Positions 16,783 through 42,631 of a DNA stretch of 64,000 bases are shown one piece after another. How positions within the stretch are numbered: position 1 is the first letter of the stretch; each line of letters opens with the position of its first letter. This stretch comes from a virus: positions 1 through 64,000 of the IMG/VR virus record IMGVR_UViG_3300031957_002648, one strand, 5' to 3'. The position numbers and the translations under genes were made by a program. Below the pieces are notes generated by a model that was not told the DNA's origin, did no database searches, and was given only the letters and a program-made list of their open reading frames with translations.

Positions 16783-16867
16783 TGCGAGTAGGGAGACTTG
16801 AACTCCCACGACCGTAATGGTCAACAGATTTTAAGTCTGGTGCGTCTACCGATTCCGCCATACTCGC
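16783..16867 (-). tRNA. tRNA-Leu(TAA)
   Basis: GCGAGTA/TACTCGC acceptor stem, CTTAAAA anticodon loop, long variable arm, GTTCAA T-loop. Confidence 0.95.
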
Positions 16868-16868
16868 A

Positions 16869-17045
16869 AGGCATTACACTTATCCGAATGCTTGCTATGG
16901 GGCAATTAAACCCAACATTCTGATAGTTTGTAATGGAGTAGGACAGGGGTCCACCCTGAACATCCAAAGGGGGCTGATTCCCAACTACAGGGTTTCGGTA
17001 TATCCGAACCGCTGGGCACCTTTGGTTGGAACGTCTCAAGTTCCT
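16869..17045 (-). ncRNA. structured RNA between tRNAs, probably the manA RNA motif
   Basis: Helices CCAAAGG/CCTTTGG, TTCGG/CCGAA, CAGGG/CCCTG, GAATGTT/AGCATTC, CATTACA/TGTAATG; size and tRNA-adjacent cyanophage context fit manA. Confidence 0.6.
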
Positions 17046-17047
17046 TA

Positions 17048-17120
17048 TGCTTCCTGAGAGGATCGAACTCTCCTTAGGCGAATTATGAGTTCGCTGCATT
17101 CACCAGATTGCTAAGGAAGC
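17048..17120 (-). tRNA. tRNA-Met(CAT), elongator type (Ile2 not excluded)
   Basis: GCTTCCT/AGGAAGC acceptor, GCGAA-CTCATAA-TTCGC anticodon arm; lacks initiator features. Confidence 0.9.
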
Positions 17121-17123
17121 AAA

Positions 17124-17195
17124 TGGTTCTGCCGAGAATTGAACTCGGTTCACACGCTTATAAGGCATGGGCTTTAACCAATAAGCAACAGAACC
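17124..17195 (-). tRNA. tRNA-Ile(TAT)
   Basis: GGTTCTG/CAGAACC acceptor, CATGC-CTTATAA-GCGTG anticodon arm, CCGAG-TTCAATT-CTCGG T-arm. Confidence 0.9.
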
Positions 17196-38197: not shown

Positions 38198-38295
38198 GAA
38201 TTTATTTATAGAGAAATTTTATTTCTCTATAGATCAGAAACATGATAGCAATACAACCTAGGGATATGATCCCACTAATTTGTAATGCTTGCATG

Positions 38296-38460
38296 TCACT
38301 TAGCGTAAGTGTGACCGCGATAGCAGAATGTGCCGTGAACTTCTTCACCGCTCTGCTTGCACTCATACTCAACACCACGATAGGCTGTCATAGCAATCTG
38401 TGCATCGTGAAGAGCAGAAGCCTTTTGAATCTGCTTTCTGATCATATTGAGTGTGTTCAT
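38296..38460 (-). CDS. DUF4278-like small protein
   Basis: 54 aa with two YRG motifs (AYRGVEY, CYRGHTY); AGGAGA Shine-Dalgarno. Confidence 0.85.
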   Translation of the reverse strand: MNTLNMIRKQIQKASALHDAQIAMTAYRGVEYECKQSGEEVHGTFCYRGHTYAK

Positions 38461-38518
38461 TGGTAGTCTCCTAAAAGAATGGAAAGTTAACCTTCTCTGC
38501 CGTAGCAGGATCCGTTTT

Positions 38519-38732
38519 CCCGTTCCTTCAGTCGTGTGCGTCCTTGGTATCAAAACAACTGGGTTCAGTATGTTCGATCCATCTTGTGATGATATCAAAC
38601 TTCTGAGAAGGAGTAAACAGAGTAGAACTCTGAATTCCTTCTTTTAACCATTCATAGTCTTCACACCGAAGATAATCTTCAGGTGGGACATGCATGAATA
38701 ACACAGTCAGCAGTGATAACATAGGATGAACG
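38519..38732 (-). ncRNA. second, split glutamine riboswitch aptamer (glnA/Downstream-peptide family) whose P2 loop holds an ORF
   Basis: 5' half CGTTCATCCT (38732-38723); 3' half AGGACGCACACGACTGAAGGAACGGG (38544-38519). Confidence 0.6.
38528..38722 (-). CDS. 64-aa protein encoded inside the riboswitch aptamer
   Basis: MLSLLTVLFMHVPPEDYLRC...SCFDTKDAHD; hydrophobic N-terminus, two Cys; GGAG 10 nt upstream. Confidence 0.65.
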   Translation of the reverse strand: MLSLLTVLFMHVPPEDYLRCEDYEWLKEGIQSSTLFTPSQKFDIITRWIEHTEPSCFDTKDAHD

Positions 38733-38733
38733 C

Positions 38734-38810
38734 TCCGTTCCGCGACTTACTTGCGTCCTGTGGCGTCTTTCTAGACTATCTGCCTAGCGACTACCACCCG
38801 GATGAACGTA
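38734..38810 (-). ncRNA. glutamine riboswitch aptamer 1 (glnA/Downstream-peptide family)
   Basis: CGTTCATCC...GGACGCAAGTAAGTCGCGGAACGG; P1 CGTTC/GAACG, P2 TCC/GGA extended by GTGG/CCAC and CTAGGC/GTCTAG; begins at the predicted TSS. Confidence 0.75.
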
Positions 38811-38815
38811 TGGCC

Positions 38816-38844
38816 ATTATATGACCTTTCGATTATTTAGTCAA
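38816..38844 (-). promoter_or_regulatory. sigma70-type promoter with overlapping late promoter
   Basis: TTGACT-N17-TATAAT; CTAAATA overlaps the -35. Confidence 0.8.
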
Positions 38845-38851
38845 GTATTTT

Positions 38852-38867
38852 TGTAACATATGATACA
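38852..38867. promoter_or_regulatory. NtcA-binding site
   Basis: TGTA-N8-TACA palindrome (tgtaacatatgataca) just upstream of the -35. Confidence 0.7.
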
Positions 38868-39778: not shown

Positions 39779-40834
39779 TTAGAGTGCGTTGCCTCTCGGG
39801 AGAACTTCCTCTGGAAATACAAACTGCTCGTGTGGCTGATCTACTGGTGCCATCCATGCACGGAGCCCTTCGTTGAGCAAGATGTTCTTCGTGTAGAAGG
39901 TCTCAAATTCAGGATCTTCTGCTGCTCTAATTTCTTGAGAGACGAAATCGTAGGCACGAAGATTAAGAGCCAAGCCAATAATGCCAATGGAAGAAGTCCA
40001 GAGACCCATAACAGGAACAAAAAGCATAAAGAAATGCAACCAACGCTTATTGGAGAAGGCGATTCCAAAAATCTGGGACCAGAAACGATTGGCAGTAACC
40101 ATCGAATAGGTCTCTTCTTCTTGAGTAGGCTCGAATGCCTTGAAAGTATTTGATTGTTCACCGTCTTCATAAAGTGTGTTTTCTACAGTAGCACCGTGAA
40201 TAGCACAGAGCAGTGCTCCACCCAGTATACCAGCAACTCCCATCATGTGGAAGGGGTTGAGCGTCCAGTTGTGGAACCCTTGTAGGAACAACAGGAACCT
40301 GAAGATTGCTGCCACACCGAAGGAGGGAGCAAAGAACCAGGACGATTGTCCCAGAGGATAGATAAGAAAGACGCTGACAAAGACAGCGATGGGACCCGAA
40401 AAAGCAATCGCATTATAAGGACGGATTCCAACTAATCGAGCAATCTCAAACTGCCTGAGCATGAAACCTATGAGAGCAAAGGCTCCGTGGAGCGCCACAA
40501 AATTCCAGAGTCCGCCAAGTTGGAGCCAGCGGACGAAATCTCCCTGAGACTCAGGACCCCAAAGTAGAAGAAGAGAATGACCCATAGCGTCAGCAGGAGT
40601 TGACACAGCTGCCGTGAGGAAATTAGCGCCCTCAAGATAACTAGACGCCAATCCGTGGGTATACCAGCTTGTAACAAACGTCGTGCCAGTAAGCCAGCCA
40701 CCAATTGCCAGATAAGCAGTGGGAAAAAGTAATAGTCCAGACCAGCCCACAAATACAAAGCGGTCTCGTTTAAGCCAGTCATCGAGGACATCGAACCACC
40801 CCCTTTGCGGTATATTTAGTGTACTTGTTGTCAT
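39779..40834 (-). CDS. psbD: photosystem II D2 protein
   Basis: [16 protein letters not shown] ... [10 protein letters not shown]. Confidence 0.99.
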
Positions 40835-42484: not shown

Positions 42485-42590
42485 AGTAAGACCATCAGGG
42501 AAATGGTGGAGTTACTATTTCCTGTCACCCTTAGACAGGATATGAGAGACGTGCTTTATACACCCTATAGGTCTCGGTTTACGGGGTGTT
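42485..42590 (-). ncRNA. PhotoRC-II-like structured psbA leader RNA
   Basis: ACACCC/GGGTGT, GAGAC/GTCTC, TCCTGTC/GACAGGA, ACCAT/ATGGT pairings directly 5' of psbA. Confidence 0.75.
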
Positions 42591-42631
42591 ACAATGGATT
42601 AAAAACCGTTACGTTTCTTAACCCGTTGACC

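Follow-up and report, generated by a model that had tools for sequence, protein, structure and literature searches.

A small protein gene nested within a proposed interlocked, glutamine-I-type riboswitch element of cyanophages

We describe a small protein-coding gene that lies within a hairpin of a glutamine-riboswitch-type RNA element of a T4-like cyanophage, and propose that the two aptamer-like units of this element belong to one interlocked fold. The window analysed is a stretch of 64,000 nucleotides (nt), positions 1 to 64,000 of the IMG/VR record IMGVR_UViG_3300031957_002648, with psbD at 39779-40834 (minus strand). Also on the minus strand, positions 38808-38519 hold two glutamine-aptamer-like units, with the coordinates and sequences that an earlier reading of the letters of the window (hereafter the original prediction) had given them. 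Unit 1 (38808-38734) consists of CGUUCA-UCC, a 41-nt insert and GGA-CGCAAGUAAGUCGC-GGAACGG. Two bases past its end unit 2 starts with CGUUCA-UCCU (38732-38723), and the next three bases, from 38722 on, are the ATG of a 64-codon open reading frame (ORF). The matching 3' half of unit 2, AGGA-CGCACACGACUGAAGGAACGGG (38544-38519), encodes the KDAHD end of this ORF and its TGA stop. As a whole, an interlocked two-core RNA with a nested gene and an inferred regulatory switch is, in our judgement, the probable explanation of the locus.

Judged from how its sequence has evolved, the nested ORF is a real gene, as the original prediction had held, because its ratio of nonsynonymous to synonymous substitution rates (dN/dS) is about 0.2, its product matches phrog_13397 and a stand-alone homologue exists. 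The median dN/dS is 0.20 over 1960 pairs, the variability at the three codon positions amounts to 0.62/0.35/1.07 bits of entropy, and frame 0 contains no stops where the other two frames average 2.5 and 5.7. The protein family comprises at least 179 protein clusters. Its stand-alone member (L039:701-886, 49% identity) sits on an AT-rich contig without aptamer halves, where it overlaps the next gene by ATGA. AlphaFold confidently models the nested protein as a small four-helix structure with a predicted local distance difference test score (pLDDT) of 84.5 and with the last five residues disordered. These five aptamer-encoded residues are dispensable, many relatives ending at a TAG just 5' of GACGCA (59 amino acids). 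Residues H11, C20, W25, W48, H51 and C56 are invariant in the family, and H11, C20, H51 and C56 suggest a possible metal or disulfide site. Searches for a function gave no match in Pfam, none in the PDB with Foldseek at E <= 0.001 and only viral hypothetical clusters in the ESM Atlas.

The stretch of about 190 nt could instead be a structured extension of the P2 hairpin that is open by chance. The ends of the ORF are indeed under constraint at the RNA level and no Shine-Dalgarno sequence is conserved before it, but the low dN/dS, the strong third-position variation, the frame-specific lack of stops, the six invariant residues, the AlphaFold score and the stand-alone homologue all speak for translation, and RNAalifold finds no conserved structure in the interior of the ORF. 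We give an untranslated ORF next to no credence. A hairpin at codons 13-20 showed apparent covariation by eye; its register differs between clades, so that it is not claimed.

The arrangement recurs far beyond the window. In essentially all of 73 distinct related viral contigs a homologous ORF is bracketed by the same half-aptamers, with CGTTCA 9-10 nt 5' of the ATG and GGAACG at or just past the stop. The layout is not due to chance, because these same flanks surround the ORF in the 73 contigs and because the flanking motifs are single in the window, where CG[CG]AAGUA and [GA]AAGGAACG each occur once. By blastn, the nested ORF together with the downstream gene is present in 413 phage records, and isolates with the layout include S-RSM4, S-RIM8 and S-SCSM1. 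To see how general the layout is, we sampled 129 complete junction elements of cyanophages without regard to ORFs, and about 83% hold at least one nested gene. A short unit 1 hairpin followed by an ORF in unit 2, as in the window, was found in 88/129 elements; both hairpins were short in 18/129, the ORF lay in unit 1 with a short unit 2 in 9/129, both units carried an ORF in another 9/129, and other combinations made up 5/129. A scan of genome_contigs with the junction pattern returned mostly chance matches; among the matches listed, the only three that looked real (L359, L386 and L428) seem to lie on phage contigs. Contigs of metatranscriptomes (4 runs) span aptamer halves, parts of the ORF and the downstream DUF4278 gene, although strand, ends and level are not readable from them and DNA carry-over is possible, so that they do not count as evidence of expression. 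These contigs include relatives in which a short loop replaces the nested ORF. Decay or variation of the layout is seen in three contigs. In L083 GGAACAAC, a terminator-like hairpin and a further CGUUCA come after the 3' half in place of the DUF4278 gene. The ORF is 5 to 9 codons longer where a 1-nt insertion takes the nested stop out of the reading frame (L018) or where TGG replaces TGA (L049).

The gene is enclosed by a helix that has been maintained by compensatory change. Unconstrained RNAalifold folding of 71 sequences yields a long-range closure made of CGUUC/GAACG, UCCU/AGGA and a 6-7 base pair (bp) extension, GUUAUCA/UGAUAAC, a predicted closing helix that takes in the nested AUG and codons 2-3. 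Cells of this helix are paired in 97.5% of cases compared with 36-60% in slid registers, and 14 cells show double changes compared with 3.8 in shuffles, none of 500 shuffles reaching 14. At least four contiguous closing pairs are present in 171/172 distinct ORF-bearing elements, with a mean of 9.8 pairs when the extension is counted. The original prediction had proposed that UCCU/AGGA closes P2, which both RNAalifold and the pair counts bear out, and had named P2 covariation and the dN/dS of the ORF as checks; both came out on its side. By these alignments a covarying helix that includes the nested AUG closes around the gene. We call this hairpin P2b and its counterpart in unit 1 P2a.

Several families of nested ORFs occupy this niche. 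All start 3-5 nt past the core, and nearly all use a single frame through the 3' half, ending in ...DAND* or ...DAKAD*. In other cyanophages (among them L105, L125, L135, L154, L173, L182 and L041) the unit 1 hairpin bears a gene as well, of about 61-67 codons with the pattern ML..LLA.TLAHH...SCE...GEC, which starts directly 3' of CGUUCAUC(C/U). In L032-L035, L109 and L131 the order is swapped: the ORF family of the window lies in the first unit, in the P2 of the outer core and directly past the promoter, and the hairpin of the second unit is short. These swapped elements keep the 3' halves specific to each position, the AGUA type first and the GAA type second. Profile comparison relates the family of the window to the unit 1 family at 76% probability (E 2e-5) and to the ...WDAND family at 24% (E 8e-4), the latter value being partly inflated by the aptamer-encoded tail. 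These similarities are no more than suggestive of a single superfamily.

One explanation for such variety is that P2 is merely permissive, so that small phage genes settled there at no cost, favoured by genome compaction and a shared promoter, and that the riboswitch governs the DUF4278 gene only. The free length of P2 in elements without an ORF (8 to 41 nt), the existence of several nested families in either unit or both, and the stand-alone homologue in L039 would fit passive passengers. The placement of the genes fits them poorly: the AUG always lies 3-5 nt past the core and within the closing helix, frame and stop, taken with respect to the 3' half, do not differ between families, and codons 2-3 covary with codons about 58-59 in a way that keeps the helix. 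Moreover, about 83% of the elements sampled regardless of ORFs bear a nested gene, and a translating ribosome is physically incompatible with P2b, P3 or P1. We regard the passenger explanation as improbable.

The way in which the two units are connected was read from the covariation of their P1 strands over more than 200 distinct cyanophage elements, where 5'a and 3'A denote the strands of unit 1 and 5'b and 3'B those of unit 2. In the order 5'a/3'A/5'b/3'B, these strands are CGUUC/GAACG/CGUUC/GAACG in 145 distinct elements, CGUUC/CAACG/CGUUG/GAACG in 61 (with 10 more that have an incomplete or variant last strand) and CGUUU/CAACG/CGUUG/AAACG in 6. The double variant CAACG/CGUUG occurs in at least 120 contigs and the single variants in only 3 and 7. 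Therefore 3'A pairs with 5'b to give an inner P1, and 5'a with 3'B to give an outer P1. The minimum free energy (MFE) and centroid structures of the window itself take this nested wiring (z = -3.28). The junction hairpin GAACG-GAG-CGUUC of the original prediction does exist, but not as the competing structure it was thought to be, since the CAACG/CGUUG covariation in at least 61 elements identifies it as the native inner P1. Nor does the second CGUUC close P1 with the GAACG that follows the ORF, as had been supposed; the first CGUUC pairs there instead, as seen from CGUUU/AAACG in six elements. Within the inner P1 the flip affects the junction-proximal pair, which is not a ligand contact. The junction loops vary (GAG, GAU, GAAU, GGUU and GGUA), and the GGAG that had been taken for the Shine-Dalgarno sequence of the ORF is not conserved.

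The two units are joined a second time through P3. The 3' half of unit 1 has the loop-E strand AGUA and no GAA, and that of unit 2 has GAA and no AGUA; the adjoining stretches, AGUCG in unit 1 and CGACU in unit 2, are complementary and form P3. Among distinct elements we found 22 types of P3 strand pairs, all of them complementary between the two 3' halves, for example AGCCGACU/AGCCGACU, AGCCGACA/UGCCGACU, AGCCGACG/CGCCGACU, GGACGACG/CGCCGCCC, GGACGG/CCGCCC and AGUCA/UGACU. The innermost pair switches among G-C, U-A and A-U, and in formal pair counts pair 39-101 is AU 15, GC 5 and GU 2 and pair 47-94 is GC 6, UA 5 and AU 3. This trans P3 holds wherever it is variable in 23 compact natural elements; mini-hairpins within each strand, considered in its place, fail there (5 paired versus 9 not). 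Variants with an 8-bp P3 (e.g. L107, L143 and L239) otherwise covary and retain two mismatches placed symmetrically, A.C / C.A at positions 3 and 6, which could be read as protonated wobble pairs or as a feature for recognition.

With a single P3 and loop E common to both units and formed between their 3' halves, positions 38808-38521 (minus strand) very probably make up one interlocked RNA with two glutamine-I-type cores, and not the two adjacent, independent aptamers of the original prediction. In the predicted fold the outer core consists of P1, P2a, the junction CGCA, loop E (AGUA opposite GAA) and P3 (AGUCG/CGACU), which opens into the inner core. The inner core would repeat the outer core's junction in circularly permuted form, running from the P1' hairpin through a junction A, P2b and CGCACA back into P3.

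A serial arrangement of two independent aptamers (5'a with 3'A, 5'b with 3'B), in which the junction hairpin competes in the ligand-free state and inactivates both, is possible on paper for the window, whose four P1 strands are wild type, and would agree with catalogues that treat tandem glutamine riboswitches as separate units (PMC9481103). It would, however, put a mismatch into both P1 helices in at least 61 distinct elements where the nested wiring is perfect, and the outer pair covaries to U-A in 6 more; single P1 variants are rare, neither unit has a P3 and loop E of its own, and the Rfam model itself picks the nested alignment (in L123, below). These observations leave the side-by-side arrangement very improbable.

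Membership of the glutamine-I class is clearest in relatives that lack the long insertion. The compact relative L123:8338-8422 scores 38.3 bits (E 2.7e-7) with RF01739, above the gathering threshold of 35 bits, and the model aligns it as a single outer aptamer whose P3 loop takes up the inner unit, an insert of 38 nt. Once its ORF is deleted, the window is identical to the L123 element in 78/83 aligned columns. A gathering-threshold Rfam scan of 18 related loci gave no match, and their units read as single aptamers reach only 22-33.5 bits. Glutamine-II identity (RF01704, Downstream-peptide, gathering threshold 33 bits) was rejected: the window reaches 15.6 bits and the compact relative 25.9 bits, both below threshold, and the element has P3 and loop E where glutamine-II has a pseudoknot. 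In the glutamine-I structure the ligand contacts C1:G59, C58 and a junction G, G22 (PMC6698751). The letters that match C1:G59, G2:C58 and the junction G are kept in both cores and are near-invariant in the more than 200 elements. The outer core has the three-way junction, the P2 hairpin, and P3 with loop E (AGUA/GAA); the inner core has P1', P2b and P3 and no loop E of its own.

The element shares with glutamine-I riboswitches (RF01739; the gifB leader, PMC6212724) the segments CGUUCA, the YCC/GGR hairpin, CGCA/CGGA, the AGUA...GAA loop E and GGAACG, as well as the P1/P2/P3 three-way junction, the association with a downstream gene that is probably DUF4278/IF17-like and, probably, translational control in the ON direction by unmasking of a Shine-Dalgarno sequence. 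It differs from them in having two interlocked cores, with P3 and loop E built from two distant strands, an inner core that is circularly permuted and has a P1 capped by a small loop, one P2 that houses a protein gene, and a score for the window far below the Rfam threshold.

Several points weigh against this interpretation of the window. The standard Rfam scan at the gathering threshold has no match to the element, and a scan with lax filters reports only unit 1, at 14.3 bits (E = 4) for RF01739 and at the RF01704 score given above; this score is below the RF01739 threshold, and with the nested ORF the element is longer than the model can accommodate. With all four P1 strands wild type, the window's own wiring is deduced from relatives and from thermodynamic folding, its P2b extension contains one U.C mismatch (38719/38547), and the covariation counts are raw, with phylogeny not factored in. 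No Shine-Dalgarno sequence is conserved 5' of the nested AUG. The inner core, lacking its own loop E and with its P1 capped by a loop of 3-5 nt, may serve as a scaffold and not as another site for the ligand. Binding of glutamine by either core and translation of the nested gene are predictions from sequence.

A single expression platform, built from a Shine-Dalgarno and an anti-Shine-Dalgarno sequence, lies 3' of the whole element. The downstream gene is probably DUF4278-like, as originally proposed: it matches phrog_545 with E 9e-34, and PF14105 (DUF4278) with E 0.0016 and 19.2 bits, below the 25.3 cut-off. Relatives have the same type of gene 3' of the element, and their downstream proteins bear YRG motifs. 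The hexamer CU(G/A)AAG, made up of the last bases of P3, the loop-E strand and the junction G and containing the nested stop codon, is complementary at 6/6 positions to a hexamer overlapping the first two bases of the downstream Shine-Dalgarno sequence in about 165/200 distinct elements. At its variable position G faces U in 78 elements and C in 50, and A faces U in 38 and C in none. For the window both the MFE and the centroid structure contain a 9-bp helix between CUGAAGGAA (38531-38523) and UUCUUUUAG (38479-38471). Such pairing fits, by analogy, the ON-switch logic of the gifB/IF17 leader of Synechocystis, which also provides the link to DUF4278/IF17 (PMC6212724).

We hypothesize that in the absence of glutamine CUGAAG(GAA) would pair with UUCUUUUAG and mask the downstream Shine-Dalgarno sequence, leaving the nested AUG accessible, at least co-transcriptionally. 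Binding of glutamine to one core or to both would lock P1, P3 and loop E, so that the downstream Shine-Dalgarno sequence is free (ON, as in Synechocystis gifB) and the nested AUG is buried (nested gene OFF). Ribosomes on the nested gene would melt P2b and, at the stop codon, also P3, loop E and the outer P1; under this proposal translation and sensing therefore exclude each other. The coupling of ligand binding, nested translation and downstream gating put forward in the original prediction is plausible on these grounds. The logic in which glutamine turns the downstream gene on and the nested gene off, and nested translation unfolds the sensor, is a tentative prediction, including the direction of regulation, and we hold it at slightly less than even confidence.

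Alternatively, ribosomes that terminate at the UGA within the anti-Shine-Dalgarno hexamer may melt its helix with the Shine-Dalgarno sequence and so turn DUF4278 on, in which case the riboswitch would chiefly gate the nested AUG and both genes would move together. It is in keeping with such translational coupling that the stop U(G/A)A is central in the hexamer in nearly all nested-gene families, that the G-to-A change in the hexamer preserves the stop (UGA to UAA) and always has U opposite, and that all families read the aptamer 3' half in the same frame. Against it, variants with an earlier stop (a TAG directly 5' of GACGCA, giving 59-residue proteins) are common and retain the element otherwise, and the 45-85 nt from the stop to the next AUG is long for direct coupling. 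Compact elements without an ORF also keep the anti-Shine-Dalgarno hexamer and its complement; therefore the platform works without a nested gene. We consider coupling of this kind unlikely.

A more far-reaching possibility is a reciprocal, translation-coupled switch with two glutamine sites. At high glutamine a phage IF17-like inhibitor of the host's glutamine synthetase would be switched on and the nested gene switched off, and low glutamine or active nested translation would do the reverse. The nested proteins would then be a new superfamily of host-nitrogen effectors that evolved inside the sensor, small, with two conserved Cys and often His, located in either or both hairpins and spread across cyanomyoviruses. 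Taken jointly, these elaborations are rather doubtful.

The features of the locus are collected in Table 1.

Table 1. Positions of the predicted RNA elements and genes of the locus in the 64,000-nt window
Feature	Position	Strand	Support
sigma-70-type promoter TTGACT-17 nt-TATAAT	38816..38844	-	11/12 consensus matches; kept directly upstream in relatives
Outer P1 5' strand CGUUC, partner 38525-38521	38804..38808	-	MFE and centroid; CGUUU/AAACG covariation, 6 elements
P2a hairpin of outer core (UCC...GGA, 41-nt insert)	38756..38802	-	all four P2a pairs covary in compact relatives
Outer-core junction CGCA 38755-38752, loop-E strand AGUA 38751-38748 and P3 5' strand AGUCG 38747-38743	38743..38755	-	
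Inner P1 hairpin GAACG-GAG-CGUUC	38728..38740	-	MFE/centroid; covariation; pair 50-64 = GC 21, CG 2
P2b 5' strand UCCU 38726-38723, AU, extension GUUAUCA 38720-38714	38714..38726	-	RNAalifold, pair counts
Nested AUG	38722-38720	-	within P2b 5' strand
Nested gene, 64 codons + TGA (38530-38528)	38528..38722	-	phrog_13397 match; dN/dS
P2b 3' strand UGAUACC 38552-38546, A, AGGA 38544-38541	38541..38552	-	RNAalifold, pair counts
Inner-core junction CGCACA 38540-38535 and P3 3' strand CGACU 38534-38530	within 38521..38540	-	
Loop-E strand GAA 38529-38527, G 38526, outer P1 3' strand GAACG 38525-38521	within 38521..38540	-	
Hexamer CUGAAG with nested stop, predicted anti-Shine-Dalgarno	38531-38526	-	
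UUCUUUUAG (38479-38471) and Shine-Dalgarno AGGAG (38472-38468) of downstream gene, overlapping	38468..38479	-	
Downstream DUF4278 / IF17-like gene, 54 codons, presumed regulated	38296..38460	-	phrog_545; sub-threshold PF14105

From the promoter at 38844-38816 (minus strand) transcription is predicted to start at about 38809, the first base of the riboswitch, and TTGACT...TATAAT is also found directly 5' of the element in relatives. On the same strand GTATCATATGTTAC (38853-38866), a perfect match to the NtcA-box consensus GTA-N8-TAC, ends 8 nt upstream of the -35 TTGACT, a position that differs from the canonical -41.5. The -10 TATAAT is part of an imperfect palindrome (38812-38829, minus strand) that reads GGTCATATAATGGCC in the window and GGTCTATAATAGACC in many relatives (L004, L013, L097 and others) and resembles the promoter-early stem-loops that serve as shuffling cassettes in T4-type phages. 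A small hairpin with a stable tetraloop, CUGC-UACG-GCAG (38496-38509, minus strand), is located 3' of the riboswitch and ahead of the Shine-Dalgarno sequence. Most relatives lack this insert; counterparts with compensatory stems and other stable loops are CUCG-GAAA-CGAG in L002, ACCC-UACG-GGGU in L003 and CCUC-GCAA-GAGG in L184. A hydrophobic micro-ORF of 30 codons (MQALQISGIISLGCIAIMFLIYREIKFLYK; 38202-38294, minus strand) starts 1 nt past the stop of the DUF4278-like gene and is followed on its 3' side by a strong intrinsic-terminator-like hairpin at 38197-38176. Elsewhere in the window are a PhotoRC-II RNA at 42507-42601 (minus strand, 80.2 bits) and three tRNA genes at 16783-17195 (minus strand).

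Tandem glutamine riboswitches as such are known. Tandem glnA RNAs were noted by Weinberg 2010 (PMC2864571), and Sherlock et al. 2022 list 157 glutamine doublets as pseudo-cooperative with multiple expression platforms (PMC9481103). Neither of these two papers contains nested ORFs or interlocked wiring, the second also does not mention phages, and Klähn 2018 (PMC6212724) discusses neither phages nor nested ORFs. Our full-text literature search found no paper that describes a gene nested in an interlocked glutamine riboswitch, in agreement with the original prediction, which knew of no description of the layout. The element resembles the catalogued tandems in that two glutamine-aptamer-like units stand head to tail in one leader; it differs in that the units are inseparable, with P1 strands swapped, P3 shared and one expression platform. 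A pseudo-cooperative tandem, in which independent units each have their own platform (PMC9481103), was rejected on account of the swapped P1, the shared P3 and the single Shine-Dalgarno/anti-Shine-Dalgarno platform.

Two other systems offer partial parallels. The tandem glycine riboswitch has two aptamers that form separate domains, dock by tertiary contacts and serve one expression platform. Like it, the present element would combine two homologous cores in one fold with a single platform, making cooperativity possible; here, however, helices are shared through nested secondary structure and one core bears a gene. Group I and group II introns (e.g. phage T4 td, nrdB and sunY) are self-splicing ribozymes whose peripheral loops hold ORFs for homing endonucleases or maturases. 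They too have a gene in the loop of a structured RNA, where translation and folding interfere, whereas the host RNA here is a metabolite sensor and the ORF encodes a small protein without an assigned function.

Riboswitches are usually described as non-coding leaders. In this case a metabolite sensor and a protein gene would occupy the same nucleotides, with the start codon placed in one of the sensor's helices and the stop codon in the strand governing the gene that follows. Such an element is a natural system for probing the competition between the ribosome and ligand-dependent RNA folding, and one sensor may drive two genes in opposite directions. The wiring of the cyanophage "tandem" glutamine riboswitch is revised to one interlocked two-site fold that could be truly cooperative, and the layout explains why standard Rfam scans miss most such elements. 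Finally, the nested genes bring to light abundant uncharacterised small phage proteins that probably have to do with how phages take over the nitrogen metabolism of their marine Synechococcus and Prochlorococcus hosts.

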